In this document: piece after piece, positions 7,783 to 41,078 of the stretch
How the letters are laid out: each line of letters starts with the position of its first letter
How positions within the stretch are numbered: the first letter of the stretch is position 1
Source of the DNA: Motiliproteus sp.
GTDB lineage: Bacteria; Pseudomonadota; Gammaproteobacteria; Pseudomonadales; Balneatricaceae
DNA: 64,000 nucleotides
NCBI GenBank assembly: GCA_041586735.1
Contig: JBFGZQ010000013.1
Coordinates: 23,186-87,185, forward strand
Direction of reading: 5' to 3'
Notes under the pieces: model-generated
Databases searched by the model: none
Told to the model about the DNA's origin: nothing
Seen by the model: only the letters and a program-made list of their open reading frames with translations
Program-made: the position numbers and the translations under genes

Positions 7783-8038
7783 TTATAACCTTTGTTGTTG
7801 CTCAAAACCGAGACCAGATCAAGCGCAATTAAGGAGCACTCTGTTTCAGCACAGCCATCAATATAGACGAACAACACGCCAGCGCTTGATGAAAATCAAT
7901 TAACGCAATCTTGAAGCCACAAAAGGGGACTATTGGCATTCTAGGGTTGGAATAACCCTCTTCGACAGCAAGGGCGCGATTCCTATTTTGTGCAAAGCTG
8001 ATTGGGTGGTTGCGTGAAGAGCGACCGGTGAGCAAACT

Positions 8039-8051
8039 GGCTGAGGGTTAG
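8039..8051. repeat. 13-bp direct repeat GGCTGAGGGTTAG, copy 1
   Basis: An exact 13-mer is repeated at 8234-8246, 195 bp away, in the noncoding stretch downstream of the toxin gene. Confidence 0.8.
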
Positions 8052-8233
8052 GTATTCGAGCGAAGCCCAAGGAGGCCCTCACCATGACGTCCGCTATCGG
8101 CAGGTGCATCTACAGAATGGACTCGACACCTTGGAATGAGTGATAGGCAAAACGAAAGACCTGACCCTGTTGTTTTCTGCGTACTATCCTGAGTGAAACG
8201 CCCTGTGCGGACCCGCATGCAGGGTGTTGTGGG

Positions 8234-8246
8234 GGCTGAGGGTTAG
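8234..8246. repeat. 13-bp direct repeat GGCTGAGGGTTAG, copy 2
   Basis: Exact copy of 8039-8051. It overlaps a short hairpin (GAGGGT-tagag-ACCCTC) just downstream of the toxin stop codon. Confidence 0.8.
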
Positions 8247-8269
8247 AGACCCTCGGCTACCCGATTATA

Positions 8270-8563
8270 TTAGCTATCTGGTAGCTCAAGTTGCCTCTCA
8301 CTTCTCCAAACTCGAATGAGCACAACGTCGGTTTCTTGTCTCAGGTAAACAACTCGAAATGGCGAATGGATTAACTCTCGAATATGGTTCGAACCAAACT
8401 CGGGGACAATCCGGCCAGCATCAGGGTGGCGCACAAGCATTTCAGCCTGTACCAGAATGGCCGTCACATACTCATCACTGATATGCGGCACGCCCTCTTC
8501 GGTGTAGTGTTCTTGAATTGCTTGTAAATCCTCAAGAGCGGACTGTGCGATGCGCAGTTCCAT
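8270..8563 (-). CDS. Type II toxin, RelE/ParE family
   Basis: 97 aa, immediately following (abutting) an antitoxin-like ORF. The C-terminal part (REL..SPFRVVYLRQETDVVLIRVWRSER) resembles RelE/ParE toxins. GC is visibly lower than in the flanks. Confidence 0.8.
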   Translation of the reverse strand: MELRIAQSALEDLQAIQEHYTEEGVPHISDEYVTAILVQAEMLVRHPDAGRIVPEFGSNHIRELIHSPFRVVYLRQETDVVLIRVWRSERQLELPDS

Positions 8564-8833
8564 TTAGTTAATGCCCAGTGTTTTCTTTGCATCAGCTAGA
8601 GAAACGGTGTTGCCCTCGCGGACATCCATGAGACCTTGAGCCACGGCTTTAACGAACCGAAGTTCCTCAGCAGTTCTCTCATATTCCTCAAGCCCTTGAA
8701 CAACAGCTACTCCACGACCTCGGCTCGTAAGCAAGATTGGGCGATGTGTATCCTGAGTTCGGTTAACCACCTTTCCGGGGTTGATCTTTAAGTCTGAGAG
8801 AGGGACGACGTCTTCTGAAAATTTTACTTGCAT
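8564..8833 (-). CDS. Type II antitoxin, Phd/YefM family
   Basis: Start moved to ATG 8833 (MQVKFSEDVVPLSDLKINPGKVVNRTQDTHRPILLTSRGRGVAVV), with a GGAG Shine-Dalgarno 8-9 nt upstream. The stop abuts the toxin start. Confidence 0.8.
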   Translation of the reverse strand: MQVKFSEDVVPLSDLKINPGKVVNRTQDTHRPILLTSRGRGVAVVQGLEEYERTAEELRFVKAVAQGLMDVREGNTVSLADAKKTLGIN

Positions 8834-8864
8834 GAGGCATTCTCCGAAAAGTAACAATGCGCCA

Positions 8865-8894
8865 TTAATAGCACCGGTTAACAGGTGCGGTCAA
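8865..8894 (-). promoter_or_regulatory. Putative sigma-70 promoter of the TA operon with an operator palindrome in the spacer
   Basis: The minus strand reads TTGACC-(18 nt)-TATTAA. The spacer is the near-palindrome GCACCTGTTAACCGGTGC (16 of 18 symmetric), the expected layout for antitoxin autoregulation. Confidence 0.55.
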
Positions 8895-9048
8895 GAAAAT
8901 ATAACGTTCCCATCAAGCGCCGCAGAATGCGGTCGCTTGGATGGACTTGTGTACGCCCGGCATGGGCATGATCTTACTCAGCAGCCACGTACACGCCAAC
9001 CATTACTCTAGACGAGTGAGCGCCCCTTAACCGTCTTACAAAACAATC

Positions 9049-33698: not shown

Positions 33699-35357
33699 AT
33701 GGCTCAATTCGTCTTTACGATGCATCGGGTGGGCAAGATCGTGCCGCCCAAGCGTGAGATCCTCAAAGATATCTCGCTGTCATTCTTTCCGGGTGCCAAG
33801 ATCGGCGTACTGGGCCTCAACGGTTCTGGTAAATCCACGCTGCTGAAAATCATGGCGGGCATCGATCCGGACTTTAACGGTGAAGCACGCCCGCAACCGG
33901 GTATCAACATCGGCTATCTGGCCCAAGAGCCCCACATGGACGACAACAAAACCGTCCGCGAAGTGGTCGAAGAAGCGGTCGCCGAAGCCAAAGATGCGCT
34001 GACCCGACTCGATGAAGTCTACGCCGCGTACGCCGAGCCGGATGCCGATTTCGACAAACTGGCCGCCGAACAGGCCCGCCTAGAAAACATCATCCAGGCG
34101 GTCGACGCCCACAACATCGAACGCCAGATGGAGGTCGCCGCCGATGCCCTGCGTCTACCGGGCTGGGACGAGAAGGTTGAACACCTCTCTGGGGGCGAGC
34201 GCCGCCGCGTCGCCCTGTGCAGACTGCTGCTGTCCAAGCCCGACATGCTGCTACTCGATGAGCCCACCAACCACCTCGACGCCGAATCGGTGGCCTGGCT
34301 GGAACGCTTCCTGGTGGACTTCAACGGTACGGTGGTAGCGATCACCCACGACCGCTACTTCCTAGACAACGCTGCGGGCTGGATCTTAGAACTCGACCGC
34401 GGTCACGGCATCCCTTACGAGGGCAACTACAGCTCCTGGCTGGAGCAGAAAGACGCGCGCCTGGCGACGGAAGCCAAGCAGGAAGCCGCGCATCAAAAGA
34501 CCATCAAATCAGAACTGGAGTGGGTTCGCCAAGGATCCAAAGGGCGTCAATCCAAGTCCAAGGCGCGTTTAAAGCAGTTCGAGGAGATGAGCTCGCAGAG
34601 CTACCAGAAACGCAATGAAACTCAGGAGATCTATATTCCGCCAGGACCCCGTCTGGGCGAGAAAGTGATCGAGCTGCACAACGTCTGCAAGGCGTTTGGT
34701 GAGAAGATGCTGGTCGACAATATGAGTTTCACCATCCCACAGGGCGCAATCGTTGGCGTTATCGGCGGCAACGGTGCGGGCAAGTCCACGCTGTTCAAGA
34801 TGATCAGCGGCACAGAACAGCCCGATTCAGGCGAGGTGGTGATCGGCCAAACAGTCAAGCTCGCCCACGTAGATCAAATGCGCGAGCTTGATGGATCGAA
34901 AACCGTATTTGACGAAATATCGGACGGTCAGGACATCATTACCGTCGGTAACTATCAGGTACCCGCACGCGCCTACGCCGGTCGTTTTAACTTTAAAGGC
35001 GGCGATCAGCAAAAATTCGTCAAAGACCTGTCCGGTGGTGAGCGCAATCGTCTGCACCTGGCCAAACTGCTGAAAGAGGGTGGCAACGTGCTGCTGCTCG
35101 ACGAGCCGACCAACGACCTCGACGTCGAAACCCTGCGCGCCCTGGAAGAAGCGCTGCTGGCATTCCCCGGCTGCGCCATCGTGATCTCGCACGATCGCTG
35201 GTTCCTGGACCGGATCTCCACCCATATTCTTGCGTATGAGGGCGACTCCAAAGCCGTATTCTTTGAGGGCAACTACAGTGAGTATGAAGCCGACTTTCTA
35301 ACACGAGTCGGCGATGCTACGCCTCACAGAGTTAAGTATAAGAAGATCGATGCTTAA
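33699..35357 (+). CDS. ettA: Energy-dependent translational throttle protein EttA (ABC-F); the last 26 sense codons (35279-35354) lie beyond the shared 8-bp core and are island-derived
   Basis: 552 aa with two ABC cassettes (GLNGSGKST/LSGGERRRVAL and GGNGAGKST/LSGGERNRLHL) and no TM domain. Codon usage switches to AT-rich right after AACTACAG at 35271-35278. Confidence 0.95.
   Translation: MAQFVFTMHRVGKIVPPKREILKDISLSFFPGAKIGVLGLNGSGKSTLLKIMAGIDPDFNGEARPQPGINIGYLAQEPHMDDNKTVREVVEEAVAEAKDALTRLDEVYAAYAEPDADFDKLAAEQARLENIIQAVDAHNIERQMEVAADALRLPGWDEKVEHLSGGERRRVALCRLLLSKPDMLLLDEPTNHLDAESVAWLERFLVDFNGTVVAITHDRYFLDNAAGWILELDRGHGIPYEGNYSSWLEQKDARLATEAKQEAAHQKTIKSELEWVRQGSKGRQSKSKARLKQFEEMSSQSYQKRNETQEIYIPPGPRLGEKVIELHNVCKAFGEKMLVDNMSFTIPQGAIVGVIGGNGAGKSTLFKMISGTEQPDSGEVVIGQTVKLAHVDQMRELDGSKTVFDEISDGQDIITVGNYQVPARAYAGRFNFKGGDQQKFVKDLSGGERNRLHLAKLLKEGGNVLLLDEPTNDLDVETLRALEEALLAFPGCAIVISHDRWFLDRISTHILAYEGDSKAVFFEGNYSEYEADFLTRVGDATPHRVKYKKIDA
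35271..35278 (+). repeat. Left junction core AACTACAG (attL side)
   Basis: This identical 8-mer begins both copies of the duplicated ettA end. The sequence to its left is host, and to its right is island-like. Confidence 0.7.
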
Positions 35358-35380
35358 CGGCTCTAGACACCTGAATGACA

Positions 35381-35404
35381 AAGGGCGCACTTAGCGTCCT
35401 TTTC
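35381..35404 (+). terminator. Island-borne terminator for the chimeric ettA
   Basis: AAGGGCGC-actta-GCGTCCTT (one G-U pair) followed by TTTT, 24 nt after the stop. Confidence 0.55.
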
Positions 35405-35512
35405 TGTGGCTATGCCTGAGTTAATGGCTGCAGGGGATAGTATTTTCATCTACTTCGAATAAGATCGCTCCCATAATAGAAGAGCACTTCAAAAACCCTA
35501 TTAATGTTGATG

Positions 35513-35542
35513 TTGACATACACTTATGCATTGGCATATTTT
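35513..35542 (+). promoter_or_regulatory. Candidate sigma-70 promoter for the island cargo genes
   Basis: TTGACA-(18 nt)-TATTTT, about 70 bp upstream of the 77-aa ORF. Confidence 0.35.
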
Positions 35543-35609
35543 GACAGTGCTACCATCAGGCTGGGATTGACCTCGAAGAGCCGCCAAGGCACTTCACAAA
35601 GGACGAGAA

Positions 35610-35843
35610 ATGGACAGGAATGTTTGCTTTTATTACCGAGAAGAAATCAAGCTTGGGACCATTAAGTACAAGCATTGTGGTTCAATGCTCTCCAATCCTC
35701 AGCTGATCGCTAACGGCACGAAGTCAGAAGGCACTCTCTGGCTTCCCGTTCCAGCCTTTGTTTTATCTCTCTTTGCCTTTATTACGCTGCTTGACCATCC
35801 GCATACTGGGCGGTTTGTATCAAAATTTTTTATTAAAACATAA
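35610..35843 (+). CDS. Small membrane protein with a degenerate zinc-ribbon-like N-terminus (unknown function)
   Basis: 77 aa with an AGGA Shine-Dalgarno upstream. The N-terminus (NVCFYYREEIKLGTIKYKHCGSML) resembles the common C-x2-C..C-x2-C zinc-ribbon peptide, but two Cys positions are Tyr. One TM helix follows (LWLPVPAFVLSLFAFITLL). The gene is AT-rich. Confidence 0.55.
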   Translation: MDRNVCFYYREEIKLGTIKYKHCGSMLSNPQLIANGTKSEGTLWLPVPAFVLSLFAFITLLDHPHTGRFVSKFFIKT

Positions 35844-35861
35844 TTCATCAGGGATGATTAT

Positions 35862-36983
35862 ATGAACTTTCCAGGGAAATATTATATTCTTTGTACTGCG
35901 ATGATTTTCAGTGTCAATGCAACAGCTGCAGCATACAATACTGAAAACTGCAGTTACCTTTCTCGCGCTGATGAAACCCTACAAAAACGCATATTTGATT
36001 GGGTTTACCCGTCAACAGGAATGCGCCCTTCATACGAATCGTTTAGCTCTGTCAGGTATTGCCAAGGATTAATAAGAGAAGCCGCTAATATAGAAAAAAA
36101 TGTGAAATACGTATGCTCTTCGTTCCCAGAAAGTTATTGTAAAGACGAGAAGACCAAGTTAGAAAACAACAATACTCGTATTGATGAGCTCCTCAAAAAG
36201 GCAAGCGAATTAAAAGTAGTCGCCCAAAAAGAAGCCTTGCAAGCGAAGATCAGGAAGGACGAAGAAAAACAAAAAGATGACTTCAATGCAAGGAATACTT
36301 ATTTAGCAGAGCAAGAGCTGAAACAAAAAAAACTTTCCCAGCATAGAGAAGATATGGACCTGGCTCTTAGCGAGCAATGCTTAAGTGAAGTTGAAACCAT
36401 CAAAAGCCATGATGCTTCTATAATTATGCACTGGAATAAAACAATAAGTGATCTTGAATCAGCAGTTAAAAATGAAAACCATCGCTATGCACAACATATA
36501 TACAATAAAGAATTTCCAAAGGTAGCGAATAAGCCAGCTCTTTTAATATATTCAAGTGGTACTGATGAGTGTTTCAAATACACAGAGTACCAGAAACTAG
36601 AATCAGAAATATTTATTGAATTTTCTAGCACAGAAATAAACAAGGATAAGCTAGAGCAGATTATGAAAAATAGTAACAATCAGGCGTCTAGCATTGAATC
36701 AACTAAAAAACATAATGTAACTCCAAAAAATAAAACAGATGCTAAAACAGGTTACTTTGTGGAGTCGGAGGTGCTTTTTTGTAATACAAAGCGTCAGTTT
36801 GATGATCAGATGCTAATGCTAAGTCAGGGCCATAAAAACTATGCTTCTGGTTGTTACTCTACTTTCGGAAATATTGATGTAGTACTTATAGATTTTGGAG
36901 TTCTCGGTGCAACAGAGGTTCGATCGTTATCCAATGGAAAATCCATGTGGATTACGTCTGAGTCTCTATCTAAGTATCAATGA
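35862..36983 (+). CDS. Secreted Lys/Glu-rich coiled-coil protein with Cys-containing terminal domains (unknown function)
   Basis: 373 aa with an AGGGA Shine-Dalgarno and a signal peptide (YYILCTAMIFSVNATAAA). The central region is charged and helical, and the C-terminal part is about 80 aa of beta-rich-looking sequence. I recognise no family. Sampled lines are about 35% GC. Confidence 0.7.
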   Translation: MNFPGKYYILCTAMIFSVNATAAAYNTENCSYLSRADETLQKRIFDWVYPSTGMRPSYESFSSVRYCQGLIREAANIEKNVKYVCSSFPESYCKDEKTKLENNNTRIDELLKKASELKVVAQKEALQAKIRKDEEKQKDDFNARNTYLAEQELKQKKLSQHREDMDLALSEQCLSEVETIKSHDASIIMHWNKTISDLESAVKNENHRYAQHIYNKEFPKVANKPALLIYSSGTDECFKYTEYQKLESEIFIEFSSTEINKDKLEQIMKNSNNQASSIESTKKHNVTPKNKTDAKTGYFVESEVLFCNTKRQFDDQMLMLSQGHKNYASGCYSTFGNIDVVLIDFGVLGATEVRSLSNGKSMWITSESLSKYQ

Positions 36984-37077
36984 TACATTAGGGTACTTCA
37001 GGGCACCTCGAAAAACCCCTCTGGTATCGTCCTATGGTAAAATTCAAAAATTCACAGCCGCCTAAGCCCTAGAATCG

Positions 37078-37224
37078 ATGAAAAAACGAAGCGCTATCAA
37101 GACCGAGCTGTTTGCTGACGCACATCACCGCAAAAAGATCTATTCACTGGGCGATCCGCTGATCGAGATCCAGTCACATATTGATTTTGCGGTATTAGCA
37201 GCTGATTTCAACATAAGCAAATAA
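37078..37224 (+). pseudogene. Possible N-terminal fragment of an IS4/IS5-superfamily transposase (48 codons)
   Basis: My translation is MKKRSAIKTELFADAHHRKKIYSLGDPLIEIQSHIDFAVLAADFNISK*. The L..LGDPL..L...IDF..L pattern recalls the InsH-type transposase N-terminal domain. There is no catalytic part downstream. This is recollection only, with no search done. Confidence 0.3.
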
Positions 37225-37455
37225 GCTCATATACAACATAAAGAGAGCCTAAAAAGAGCGACCCTTTGGGGTTGGGTTGCCTCTTCCTAAAGCAGCCTCT
37301 CTATGCTCCAAAAAGCGGCTTAAAGACCCACTGCTCGGCATGCTGAAAACAGTGATTAATATGTGATAGCCGCTTAGCAACAATGCCCATAAACAAGATC
37401 GCTACTTCATAATTTCGAAATATCTATGCTTGGACAAGACCCGCGTACAGCCTGC

Positions 37456-38001
37456 TCAAGAAGCCTTCAAAAGCCTGTATACACTGGCTTTTGACAATCC
37501 ATACTCGGACATCAACCCCCTTATCAAAACCCCTTCAGAGCGCTTCTGGCGCATCTCAAGTAGCTGCTTATCATCGAGCTTTGCCTTTCTGCCAAATCCC
37601 ACGCCTTTCGCTTTTGCTGACTCAATGCCTTCCATTTGACGCTCTTTTCGCAAGTCAGTTTCGAACTCTGCAATAGCCCCTAGCATGTTGAACATGAGCT
37701 TACCTGTGGGGGTGGTTGTGTCGATGTTCTGATCCAGCACCATAAGCTCCACATTCTTATTTTCCAGTAGCTCACGGATCTGGTTGAGATGGATAGTCGA
37801 TCTAGCCAAACGATCTAGCTTTGTTATGACCAAGACATCGCCATCCCTCACATAATCAAGACACTTTTTCAGCTCAGGCCGATCAGCCGTAGTTCCTGAG
37901 CGTTTCTCCTGATACACCTTGTCACAGCCAACTAGCTTCTCCAGCTGAACATCCAATGACTGACCAACCGTACTCACCCTTGCATATCCTATTCTAGCCA
38001 T
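37456..38001 (-). CDS. Small serine recombinase (resolvase/invertase family)
   Basis: 181 aa with the catalytic-serine motif IGYARVSTVGQ, then DVLVITKLDRLARS, AIAEFE and a C-terminal HTH (GLSKASVYRLLK). Confidence 0.9.
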   Translation of the reverse strand: MARIGYARVSTVGQSLDVQLEKLVGCDKVYQEKRSGTTADRPELKKCLDYVRDGDVLVITKLDRLARSTIHLNQIRELLENKNVELMVLDQNIDTTTPTGKLMFNMLGAIAEFETDLRKERQMEGIESAKAKGVGFGRKAKLDDKQLLEMRQKRSEGVLIRGLMSEYGLSKASVYRLLKAS

Positions 38002-38057
38002 GTCTTACAATCTCTAAGAGCTTAAGATAAACGCATTATAAGACATTGAATAAGACA
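38001..38057. promoter_or_regulatory. Candidate res-like recombinase binding half-sites directly upstream of the small recombinase gene
   Basis: TGTCTTACAAT (38001-38011) faces inverted ATTATAAGACA (38035-38045) and a further TAAGACA (38051-57). A degenerate inverted TAAGATA sits at 38023-29, giving a 29-bp site. Confidence 0.4.
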
Positions 38058-38472
38058 CGCAAGAACAATAGTATCGAAACGTATACTTTTTAAGAATGGC
38101 CCTCTGGCCTTATCCTTAATGACAATTATGCAGCAGTATTAGATTACACACCTATGCTGCATAGGTGTTTAAATCGCCTTAAATCGATGGTAATAACCAC
38201 CCTTAGAGGAGAGTATGGGCTGGTGTAGAAAAGCGATTTAAACATTGTTACGCAAGGCTATAGCATGCCTAGCACAATGACTAATGCTTATCTCCAGCAA
38301 GGAAGAGTCAGTAGCTATACCCTAATAGCGCCAGACTATGAGTGCGTGTCATGGATGTAGCAAGGGGGCTACTTTAGCAATGTATTATTTTATTTGTTAT
38401 GCATTTTGCATTCACTGGTTTGGGTGTTAAGGGAAAGGGTTAGGTGGTGGAGGGTATGTATGTCGATAGCAT

Positions 38473-38605
38473 CTACGTTCCAGTAACTAGCGGAGTAACT
38501 ACCCAAGTAACTACGTTCCAGTAACTAGCAAAATAACCATCAAATTAACCATCAAATTAACCATCAAATTAACCATCAAATTAACTAACAAATTAACTAT
38601 AAAAA
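38473..38605. repeat. Array of ten about 12-bp-phased TAAC units, including TAACCATCAAAT x4 perfect
   Basis: GTAACTA occurs at 38483, 38495, 38507 and 38521 (spacing 12, 12, 14). These are followed by TAACCATCAAAT x4 (38534-38581), then TAACTAACAAAT and TAACTATAAAAA. Confidence 0.9.
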
Positions 38606-38675
38606 CCGAGTGTGGGAGGGGGGTGCGGGTAGCATTAGAGACACTCTACGCGTACATTTTTTGATCAATTTCTTT

Positions 38676-38693
38676 GTAACTTGTTGAAGTTAC
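38676..38693. other. Hairpin GTAACTT-gttg-AAGTTAC followed by a T-run
   Basis: A perfect 7-bp inverted repeat that again contains GTAAC. Confidence 0.5.
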
Positions 38694-38752
38694 TAACTAT
38701 TTTTTAGCAAAGTCCACGTAAATGGCCTACTATAAATCAATGACTTACGAGC

Positions 38753-38848
38753 GTCTCAAAATGGCCTAAAAATCGCCTCAAAAACGACCTCAAAAACGAC
38801 CTCGAAAACGATGATTCTGAGGGGTGTTTTTCGGGCTGTTTTTGTGAG
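38753..38848. repeat. Array of 12-bp CCTCAAAAACGA-type units (3 good plus 2 degenerate direct copies) facing two inverted degenerate copies
   Basis: CCTCAAAAACGA occurs at 38776 and 38788, and CCTCGAAAACGA at 38800. Degenerate copies lie at 38753-64 and 38765-75. Inverted GTGTTTTTCGGG (38824-35) and CTGTTTTTGTGAG (38836-48) face them. Confidence 0.85.
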
Positions 38849-39254
38849 CAAAATACCCTCGTCAGTGACCTCCGTGGTGTGAACTACCTTTTGATATCGG
38901 TGCATGTGCTGTATGGGCGTTTTAAGCACTTTTAAGAGGGGTCTGAGTCGTACCTATACAAACGGGTAGGGTAACGTCAAACCACGGTTTAAATGTCAAC
39001 TGAGGGGCCTTAAAGGCACTTCTACGGTGGTAGATATCACTAGGGTCTTACTCTCTCGTAATTTTAGAGCACGAGTCTTAAACCCACCTTGATTACCACC
39101 ATTATATTTTGGTGTATTAGTCTAGAGTGATCAAGCAAAGAGGTTGTTAAGCGAATAGCTTAGACAGTAATAGCGCTCACCACTAGGCTAGACTGTCATA
39201 TCTAATGATTCCTATCTAATCTGGCAGCAATTACCTTAATGTTTTTGATGCATT

Positions 39255-40919
39255 TCAGGGGGTGAATGATTTGATTGCAACCGAGAGGTCTTTGCTAGCC
39301 AAGCTAATTGCTTTAGCCTCCTCATACAGGTCTTTAGTATCGGCTTCTATTGATGCTGCATCAGCATACCGAGGGCTATCTATCCCTTCATCTTCGCAAA
39401 CATCCTTTCCAACGGAACCGGCATACCAGAAAAACCAGTGACCGTCTTTGAGAGTTATGACGTATGTGTCTGGAGAATGAACTTCCAGCCTACCTAGATA
39501 TGAAAGAACGAACTGCCTTAGCCTTACCCTATCAGACCTAAGATCGTCATAGACGTATCGTGCCTCGCTAAAGCTAAGTAACTGCTTCGACTCAACCTCC
39601 AAGCCTTGCAGCTCGTCTTCTAGCAAGGCTCTTTGATTGGCTGCATCCTCGGCAACTAGCTTAGCTTTTTCACTAAGTGAGGCAGAGGTACTAAAATACT
39701 GTTCCGCCGCTTTATCCTCGCGTTGCTTCAACTCCTCGATCTTAAATTTCAATGATTCAATCGTATCCGCTGTTTCTCCCGTCCAATCGGTTCCCTGATT
39801 GCGTAAAGATCGCAACATTCCTCTAACCACTTCCATTTCTAATCGCAGATACGGTACCCAAGGCAAAGAACACCCATTTTTAGCTAAACGCCCCGAGCAC
39901 ACCACGTAGCACACCCATTTCACACCAGACTTCACCCGCCTATAGTGAAGAGGGCAACCACATTCATTACAGTAAATTTTCCGCTGAAAAACGTTTGCCG
40001 AATCCTGGCTATTACCCGTCCGACCTTTGTTCAGCCTATTCTGCTTTGAGATCTGTTTGATTCTTGAGTGCTGCTCCATAGTTATGATCGCAGGATAGAA
40101 ACCATCTATGGGCGGCAACTCCTTACCCTCTAACCCCCTATGCGGGATGTACTGACCTGCTAGTGACGGGTTAAGCATAATTTTTCGAACAGCCCCTTTA
40201 CTCCAAGAGGTAGGATTGCGCTCACCAGTCTCCCTGTTAATCCTGCCATAACCAAACGTAGGAACACTTTCTGCGTTTAAAACATTAGTGATATGTACAG
40301 CCCCCTTACCCTGATTCAGGTAAAGATCGACCATACGCTCAACCACAGCTTTACGCTCTGGGTTAAAGACCCAGTTGTTCTGTTCGTCCAGATCAAGCCA
40401 CTTAGGAGCTATACCACGATGCTTTTTCTTTCCCTCTCGGATGGCCTTATGAGCCTTCTGAGCACGGTCTGACTTAGTAGCACTCTCATCATATGCTCTT
40501 TGCATCGAGGCTATTGCCATGAAGAGTAAGCCAGGATTTATTGAGATTGTTTCTCTACTGTAACTTGTTGGCTCACCGATCAGAGTGGTGATAATCACTC
40601 CAGCTTGAACGATCTGAGTGAACTGGGAGAATGCATTCAACACCTCCTCACGTGACAACCTATCAAGTGACTCTGATAAAAGGATGCAAGGGGTCTTGAT
40701 CCTCCCAGCGTTCAAGCAATCTAAGAACACCCCTAATCGACCGTTTACACTGTTATCCCCGTGATAACCACTAAGACCTAAGTCAACATAACGCTCGGGA
40801 TCAATCAGGGTAAGGTTATAATTGTCTGCATACTCAACAGCTCGTTCAATTTGACGCTGAATACCGCCACCAAGCCGCTGCTTATCGCTACTGATACGGG
40901 CGTAAAGGTACGCGTCCAT
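39255..40919 (-). CDS. Large serine recombinase (integrase)
   Basis: 554 aa. It has an N-terminal resolvase domain with the catalytic Ser in LYARISSDKQ, a recombinase domain, a Cys-rich zinc-ribbon region (CNECGCPLH..CSGRLAKNGC), a coiled coil (KFKIEELKQREDKAAEQ...) and an acidic C-terminus. Confidence 0.9.
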   Translation of the reverse strand: MDAYLYARISSDKQRLGGGIQRQIERAVEYADNYNLTLIDPERYVDLGLSGYHGDNSVNGRLGVFLDCLNAGRIKTPCILLSESLDRLSREEVLNAFSQFTQIVQAGVIITTLIGEPTSYSRETISINPGLLFMAIASMQRAYDESATKSDRAQKAHKAIREGKKKHRGIAPKWLDLDEQNNWVFNPERKAVVERMVDLYLNQGKGAVHITNVLNAESVPTFGYGRINRETGERNPTSWSKGAVRKIMLNPSLAGQYIPHRGLEGKELPPIDGFYPAIITMEQHSRIKQISKQNRLNKGRTGNSQDSANVFQRKIYCNECGCPLHYRRVKSGVKWVCYVVCSGRLAKNGCSLPWVPYLRLEMEVVRGMLRSLRNQGTDWTGETADTIESLKFKIEELKQREDKAAEQYFSTSASLSEKAKLVAEDAANQRALLEDELQGLEVESKQLLSFSEARYVYDDLRSDRVRLRQFVLSYLGRLEVHSPDTYVITLKDGHWFFWYAGSVGKDVCEDEGIDSPRYADAASIEADTKDLYEEAKAISLASKDLSVAIKSFTP

Positions 40920-40969
40920 AACTCACTCTCCCCAGAAGATGAGATAGACAATAGCATGTTAGAATGTAT

Positions 40970-41056
40970 AACTACAGCGAGTACGAAGCCGACCTCGTGA
41001 CTCGTATCGGCGACACCACGCCACACCGGGTCAAATACAAAAAGATCGACGCGTAA
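40970..41056 (+). pseudogene. ettA: Displaced original 3' end of ettA (attR side)
   Basis: It reads NYSEYEADLVTRIGDTTPHRVKYKKIDA*, with GC3-rich host-like codons. It is collinear with 35271-35357 and followed by the original terminator. No start codon or upstream reading frame exists. Confidence 0.85.
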
Positions 41057-41078
41057 CCACCCGCACATCCGCATCCAC

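Follow-up and report, generated by a model that had tools for sequence, protein, structure and literature searches.

The res site of Tn3/gamma-delta systems lies directly upstream of the resolvase gene, spans about 95 bp, is made up of several subsites that share a conserved half-site and overlaps the promoter. Iteron-type replication origins, such as those of pPS10, pSC101, R6K and F, combine phased direct repeats that share a conserved core with AT-rich tracts, an integration host factor (IHF) site and an inverted repeat of the iteron core, which in these plasmids is the rep operator; iterons of plasmid origins usually measure 17–22 bp. Clostridial mobilisable transposons of the Tn4451 type are ~6 kb in length and also carry a resolvase-like gene and an origin of transfer (oriT). 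One review (PMC5704250) describes the Tn4451 type as integrating and excising by means of a large serine recombinase (LSR), as encoding a MobV relaxase and as integrating with low specificity, and describes mobilisable genomic islands (MGIs) with an SXT-like oriT as relying on a helper through cis sites only. In TubR/tubC centromeres a small protein binds cooperatively to split blocks of direct repeats (PMC6009700). The segment considered here, positions 38002–39254 of a 64,000-nucleotide (64-kb) stretch of a Motiliproteus sp. contig (the window), lies between a small and a large serine recombinase gene in a 5.7-kb integrated element. Our best reading is that it forms the non-coding, cis-acting backbone of this LSR-integrated element and has two parts. 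The first is a res site; the second would be an orphan region of plasmid type that binds proteins, and either survives as a relic or relies on a protein provided in trans. We hold this account of the segment tentatively, at a little short of an even chance.

The features of the segment are as follows.

38002–~38095, − strand: predicted res site with the resolvase promoter, abutting the start codon at 38001
38106–38259, unstranded: palindrome cluster (repeats I4, I7 and I9, and fold z-scores)
38106–38112/38253–38259: outer stem of the palindrome cluster
38127–38135/38155–38163: hairpin in the palindrome cluster
38148–38168: near-perfect 21-bp palindrome
38166–38180/38230–38244: 15-bp inverted repeat
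38370–38414, unstranded: AT-rich tract upstream of array 1, read from the sequence
38417–38455, + strand: G-run tract (GGGTGTTAAGGGAAAGGGTTAGGTGGTGGAGGG) beside array 1, read from the sequence
38473–38605, + strand: array 1, ten units in 12-bp phase (Tandem Repeats Finder (TRF) period 12, 94% matches; family D1)
38610–38630, + strand: further G-run tract (GTGTGGGAGGGGGGTGCGGG), beyond array 1, read from the sequence
38673–38696, unstranded: inverted repeat TTTGTAACTT/AAGTTACTAA (GTAACTT hairpin) with a 4-nt spacer (repeat I20)
38735–38747, + strand: perfect IHF consensus (AATCAATGACTTA), between the GTAACT inverted repeat and array 2
38753–38848, unstranded: array 2, five direct and two inverted units (TRF period 12; D2, I3 and I5)
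38849–39254, unstranded: ~400 bp without recognisable feature

The small serine recombinase encoded on the − strand at 37456–38001 is a resolvase of 181 aa (Pfam Resolvase, 2.9e-43, plus HTH_7, a C-terminal helix-turn-helix), and the DNA directly upstream of its gene contains, besides an inverted pair (repeat I12) at the start of the gene, one CGATAC half-site, a AAAAGTATAC box and TGTCTTA twice as a direct half-site. Three of the four copies of TGTCTTA in the 64 kb are found here (38001, +; 38039, −; 38051, −), and a putative resolvase promoter, read by eye, falls inside the same interval (TTGCGT at 38062–38057, 16 nt, TATAAT at 38040–38035). Relatives of the resolvase at 62–81% identity occur on plasmids and in metagenomes, the closest being on cyanobacterial and roseobacter plasmids. 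With the loci of the three closest (L090, L092 and L093; 81–69% protein identity) DNA homology runs from the resolvase start to 38090–38095 and ends there. An alignment of seven loci – the window, these three and three cyanobacterial plasmid loci – shows conserved blocks in one common layout, made up of the AAAAGTATAC box, a half-site of the CGAGAC type, TGTCTYA twice in direct orientation and, at the start codon, the inverted pair.

Homology with six orthologous loci, conserved half-site blocks and the concentration of TGTCTTA together identify 38002–~38095, from its sequence, as the res site of the adjacent resolvase: it sits directly upstream of the gene, its half-sites are repeated in both orientations, and position and motif are conserved. 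Its size of ~95 bp, its several half-site subsites and its overlap with the promoter are those of Tn3/gamma-delta res, the half-site being TGTCTYA here versus TGTCYNNTA in gamma-delta. Unlike those sites, which belong to plasmids or Tn3-family transposons, the present module resides in an LSR-integrated island. Resolvase dimers would bind the TGTCTTA-type half-sites and resolve multimers of the excised circle, and the resolvase would repress its own promoter within res. In L093 (1302–2878) a resolvase 75% identical to that of the window adjoins a rolling-circle Rep gene (PF23343), which fits a plasmid origin of the resolvase/res module; the neighbours of L090, the closest resolvase, were considered as kin of the element's proteins and proved unrelated.

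The original prediction had offered accessory-site arrays for one of the recombinases as one of three possible roles, and for the first ~95 bp this stands, in the form of res. It does not extend to the remainder, where no second res-like site was found (alignment scores of res against the rest are no higher than those of shuffles) and TGTCTYA is missing from both arrays; the attachment (att) sites of the LSR lie at the element ends, outside the segment. A second res or invertible segment based on GTCTTA at 39045 and 39075 was likewise rejected, its alignment scores not exceeding those of shuffles. That the arrays are extra sites for one of the recombinases – serving the LSR as a sink, as topological filter or for regulation – draws on their location between the two recombinase genes and on the motif TAACTAC, which is contained in the attP crossover of the LSR and is present at the attR junction (40969) and in two units of array 1. 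However, TAACTAC is not mirrored in the other attP half-site, in which the only clear dyad is GTTAGAA/TTCTAAC, and TAACYA occurs 54 times in the window, so that chance would account for a copy at the junction. LSRs need only two sites of ~40–50 bp each (PMC12286644). We regard this explanation as highly improbable.

The second part of the segment is dominated by two arrays. In array 1 the TAAC units at 38484–38605 are spaced by 12 bp, with one 14-bp step (TRF scores 112–126), and comprise four GTAACTA, four perfect TTAACCATCAAA and two TTAACTA units. Among the 8 distinct units positions 2–5 and 7 are constant and positions 8–12 show two to four states: the core T-A-A-C-Y-A is thus constant save for Y while the spacer varies, as is expected of a binding site and not of neutral decay. 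About 70 bp downstream the same GTAACT core forms the inverted repeat at 38673–38696, the stretch around which (38650–38749) is 66–72% AT; six of the 21 copies of GTAACT in the window fall inside 210 bp, a clustering far beyond chance. Array 2 consists of five direct units of 11–12 bp and of the CCTCAAAAACGA type (38753–38811) followed by two inverted units (38819–38848), and its AA/TT periodicity peaks at 11.75 bp. The IHF consensus WATCAANNNNTTR has a single match in the 64 kb, against an expectation of 1.0 per window. Sequence reading, TRF and the repeat search place all five structured elements of the original prediction where it had put them; the further short repeats that it had extended to 39220 are, beyond 38850, weak (10–17 nt, 75–91% complementary) and indistinguishable from chance.

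These features can be accommodated if nucleoprotein complexes of plasmid type assemble on 38096–39254, and mainly on 38370–38850. A sequence-specific DNA-binding protein would occupy each of the ten TAAC-A iterons, every 12 bp, and, as a dimer, the GTAACT inverted repeat; IHF would bend the neighbouring AT-rich DNA, and a second protein would coat the A-tracts of array 2. The layout would then match either a replication origin of the iteron type or a centromere of the parC/tubC type, and a role in replication or in partition may be supposed for it. Besides the invariance of the array 1 core, the support comes from the AT-rich tracts that flank the arrays, from the placing of the window's only IHF consensus between the inverted repeat and array 2, and from the combination in array 2 of direct and inverted units with ~11.75-bp A-tract phasing. 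That the closest resolvases are on plasmids, one of them beside a rolling-circle Rep, adds support for a plasmid origin of the module. Since the element holds no candidate gene for the binding protein, it would be either a plasmid relic with a lost rep or par gene, or trans-dependent on a co-resident replicon.

Comparison with iteron origins reveals likeness in the phased direct repeats with a conserved core (at least three such repeats, a number that array 1 exceeds, albeit with units shorter than usual), in the AT-rich tracts, in the one perfect IHF consensus and in the inverted repeat of the core. The unlikeness lies in units of 12 bp rather than 17–22 bp, in the missing adjacent rep gene, DnaA box and GATC cluster, and in the lack of homology between the segment and any known origin; neither the element's genes nor the six-frame search yielded a cognate rep gene beside the iterons. 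With parC/tubC centromeres the arrays share the organisation in short direct-repeat blocks with a period near one helical turn, array 2 having both direct and inverted units; however, those centromeres lie upstream of their own par operon and regulate it, and no ParA/ParM/TubZ or ParR/TubR-like gene is found in 35271–40969. An origin, centromere-like site or oriT had been the first of the roles proposed at the outset: of these suggestions it fits the anatomy of 38370–38850 best, as a tentative assignment, rep, par and relaxase genes being absent from the element and a DnaA box from the segment. Two further resemblances were considered and set aside. CtrA sites (TTAACCAT, four copies) were dismissed because gene content (Rep helicase, BarA) marks the host as a gammaproteobacterium and because they are spaced N8 rather than N7, and a likeness to lambda O iterons (CCTCAAAA(A)CGA; PMC7466680) is superficial, the units here being without a dyad.

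Several observations count against a plasmid-type protein-binding region. The array units, at 12 bp, are shorter than usual plasmid iterons. A search of the segment that allowed one mismatch finds no DnaA box, and GATC occurs there only twice despite a GATC-rich host, the 64 kb having 551 copies or roughly double the number expected at random. The element (35271–40969) contains no rep, par, relaxase or DNA-binding gene that we could find, and it shows decay in the form of an IS5 remnant (37076–37224). The original prediction had named absence of the segment from homologous islands as a refuting outcome, and the result speaks against conservation: the closest related element (L005) has protein-coding cargo at the corresponding position instead. 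Finally, blastn with 38096–39254 gave no match in PLSDB plasmids, GenBank phages or Escherichia coli genomes, exact iteron and palindrome patterns had zero matches in IMG/VR, and an array similar to array 1 occurs in ordinary chromosomal intergenic DNA.

The last of these came from a single scan of the JGI metagenomes with the exact two-unit iteron, which returned four contigs. Three represent one chromosomal intergenic region (L214 3392–3452, L215 8069–8129 and L217 3211–3271), where a short 12-bp CAAATTAAC array with a CAAATTAA core, two of its units identical to TAACCATCAAAT, is flanked by ordinary genes in convergent orientation, genes for an AMP-binding enzyme (AMP-ligase) and an aldolase being near; the fourth is a two-unit match. 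We judge these matches to be due to chance or slippage, and the intergenic array shows that such arrays can arise by slippage outside mobile elements. A degenerate pattern (four TAACYA at 12 bp) was discarded, its matches in IMG/VR, at least 120 in number, being unspecific and mostly giant-virus tandem repeats. Against all 215 fetched loci, the only matches by blastn and nhmmer were in arrays whose loci the array pattern had itself brought into the set. In all collections searched, 38096–39254 is a singleton.

These results bear directly on a quite different explanation, namely that the DNA beyond res is decaying filler left by gene loss in an ageing island, in which slippage expanded two AT-rich 12-bp minisatellites. 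In the collections searched no relative was found; the IS5 stub and the orphan cargo of the element, the four perfectly identical 12-mers (typical of recent slippage), the near-identical short array in an unrelated chromosomal intergenic region, the lack of promoter, terminator, Rfam and DnaA-box signals, and the ~600 bp without features (38260–38370 and 38850–39254) all point the same way. Against it stand a TAAC-A core that stays constant over eight distinct units with varying spacers, which neutral decay does not give, the recurrence of the array 1 core as an inverted repeat, and the presence, in no more than 750 bp, of a strong palindrome cluster, an IHF consensus and two arrays unrelated to each other; nor is there a trace of a pseudogene in any of the six frames. 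Filler is a possible account and a doubtful one, which we place second to a plasmid-type protein-binding region.

The coding content of the segment is relevant to both. The starting claim that no open reading frame (ORF) of at least 60 aa crosses these 1,253 bp is confirmed, the longest in all six frames being 57 aa, and the segment is the sole stretch of at least 500 bp in the window without such an ORF. Yet such an ORF is also missing from 28% of shuffles matched to the segment in composition; its freedom from ORFs therefore indicates non-coding DNA and nothing more. That the segment might be a frameshifted remnant of ordinary genes was named at the outset as the case that would overturn the proposal, and six-frame searches of Pfam (E≤1) and PHROGs (E≤0.1) contain no decayed gene in the segment, while a 25-aa resolvase stub in the flank, serving as positive control, was recovered. 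Comparison by tblastx with related loci was negative, barring one marginal 44-aa match (E = 0.002), which falls in the non-coding end of L005. Logan unitigs, assembled independently from three sequencing runs, agree with the segment at 99.98–100%, and the sequence is thus real and not an assembly artefact; the unitigs are interrupted within the run of perfect 12-mers (38556–38563), which makes the exact unit count of array 1 less certain.

A related claim, that every other gap in the window measures less than ~0.5 kb, holds for the six-frame track, though not necessarily for real genes: a second gene-poor gap of 1.27 kb (7783–9048) has no ORF above 97 aa. Inside it, at 8196–8265 on the + strand, Rfam detects domain V/VI of a group II intron (48.5 bits), which may be an ORF-less or truncated form.

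Between res and the arrays lies the palindrome cluster (palindromes were also mapped over 38122–38172), and it is here that a role as RNA is best examined. ORF-free, RNA-driven replicons of the ColE1 type exist, and the segment could in principle encode one or more structured non-coding RNAs, such as a recombinase regulator or the primer/antisense pair of a protein-independent origin. In favour of this, 38105–38260 as RNA of the minus strand, on which both recombinase genes are encoded, folds better than shuffles (z = −3.6). However, the fold z-scores of the cluster are −2.5 for DNA (+ strand), −3.6 for RNA (− strand) and −2.1 for RNA (+ strand), and a sliding-window scan gives z of −3 to −3.8 on both strands across 38070–38279. 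A fold equally strong on both strands at 38106–38259 indicates DNA palindromes rather than RNA. Outside res and the palindrome cluster the scan yields nothing but three isolated minus-strand windows near z = −3; within 38849–39254, which has no repeats above chance and no protein-family match, z approaches −3 on the minus strand only, at 39000–39119 and 39090–39209. Rfam has no match in the segment, neither at the gathering threshold nor at E≤10; promoter-like sites in the segment are fewer than in shuffles, a terminator-like site is missing from it, and homologs of 38096–39254 were not found. Structured RNA, the third of the roles first suggested, thus finds little in its favour and is in our estimation very improbable.

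One resemblance in the featureless 400 bp may be recorded here: GGGGTCTGAG... at 38938 is similar to the outer end of terminal repeats in the Tn3 family. The first nine bases of 38938–38976 (GGGGTCTGAGTCG...) are those of the Tn3 terminal inverted repeat, with ~20 of 38 positions agreeing overall. As a Tn3-type terminal repeat it was rejected, an inverted partner not being found in the window.

The same palindromes, together with the IHF consensus, are common ingredients of oriT. The stable palindromes (38106–38259) and the arrays might serve a helper conjugative element as binding sites for its relaxase and accessory proteins, and the excised 5.7-kb circle would so be mobilised, the element being a relaxase-less integrative mobilisable element (IME). 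Small size, an integrase and the absence of transfer genes agree with this, and relaxase-less IMEs that carry an oriT only are known (PMC5704250), for example MGIs that mimic the SXT oriT, and MTnSag1. The oriT mimics described there, however, share at least 60% identity with the oriT of their helper (PMC5704250), whereas the present sequence has no similarity to any plasmid or integrative conjugative element (ICE) sequence in PLSDB or the E. coli genomes; the element encodes no relaxase, and a ten-unit iteron array is unusual for an oriT. We consider an oriT quite unlikely.

Dependence on a helper may take another form. By analogy with SGI1, which hijacks the parABS system of IncC plasmids (PMC10954446), the element might be a minimal integrative satellite replicon whose iteron arrays capture, in trans, a protein for initiation or partition that belongs to a plasmid or phage in the same cell. 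The excised circle would replicate or segregate at the helper's cost, possibly with interference by titration; the resolvase, acting at res, would keep it from forming multimers, and integration by the LSR into the ABC-F gene would give the element a resting place. Like MGIs and SGI1, the element is small and integrated, has its own integrase and lacks replication and transfer genes, and its non-coding sites could recruit helper proteins; those islands, by contrast, have tyrosine integrases and helper-like cis sites, and here no helper or similar sequence was found in PLSDB or the E. coli genomes. A satellite replicon is in our view unlikely, if somewhat less so than an oriT.

The host element has the following features.

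~35271–40969, 5.7 kb: integrated element of low GC content, within the 3' end of an ABC-F gene, containing the segment
35862–36983: 373-aa cargo protein (36% GC), its N-terminus read by eye as a signal peptide
37076–37224: IS5-family left-end stub, 79% identical to ISAzo41-type copies, with a 48-aa transposase N-terminus
39255–40919, − strand: LSR of 554 aa, integrase of the element (Pfam Resolvase, Recombinase and Zn_ribbon_recom; PHROG 95 integrase, 1.7e-58)
Reconstructed attP junction: ...GTTAGAATGTATAACTACAGTGAGTATGAAGCC...
Empty attB: ...TTCTTTGAGGGCAACTACAGCGAGTACGAAGCC...

Its bounds follow from a duplicated gene end: the 88-bp end of the ABC-F gene is present at both 35271–35358 and 40970–41057 (76% nt identity; 25 of 28 residues identical, read by eye). 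GC content is 36–47% in the element versus 51–64% (mostly 55–60%) in the flanks. Judged from its sequence, the element was integrated by the LSR into the 3' end of the ABC-F gene and supplied an 88-bp replacement end. IMEs with serine recombinases usually disrupt their target gene, according to the review (PMC5704250); the present element instead repairs it. It differs from Tn4451 in having no relaxase and in using a specific site, that in the ABC-F gene. Both recombinase ORFs that flank the segment are intact. Among 5.8 billion protein clusters the LSR has a single close relative (P0002, 44% identity), and this adjoins the same ABC-F gene end (L005 483–557), so that the choice of target is conserved. 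The 80 fetched loci with LSR relatives (≤37% identity) include none with a long ORF-free gap beside the LSR.

In addition to the segment, the IS5 stub and the recombinases, the element encodes the 373-aa protein and two small ORFs (53 and 77 aa), the latter without match in Pfam or PADLOC. The 373-aa protein has no match in Pfam, NCBIfam, PHROGs or PADLOC, and no homologs by word-based search; HMMER recovers 37 remote, uncharacterised relatives, most of which share only a C-terminal domain of ~80 aa (residues ~290–370) that is also found standing alone in proteins of 93–150 aa. As a hidden Rep it was rejected, given the signal-peptide-like N-terminus, the remote homologs, all uncharacterised, and the lack of a Pfam match. 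Logan unitigs break at the IS5 stub, which implies further copies in the sample.

The practical value is limited for now: it lies in the confirmed res site, in the clean bounds of the 5.7-kb island and in a singleton repeat region that lacks an explanation. If the arrays work, then the element would be a very small LSR-borne one maintained entirely through cis sites, where parasitism on a helper replicon has so far been documented mainly in larger islands with tyrosine integrases; a defined pair of LSR attachment sites, attP and attB, at a conserved end of an ABC-F gene would be a further gain.

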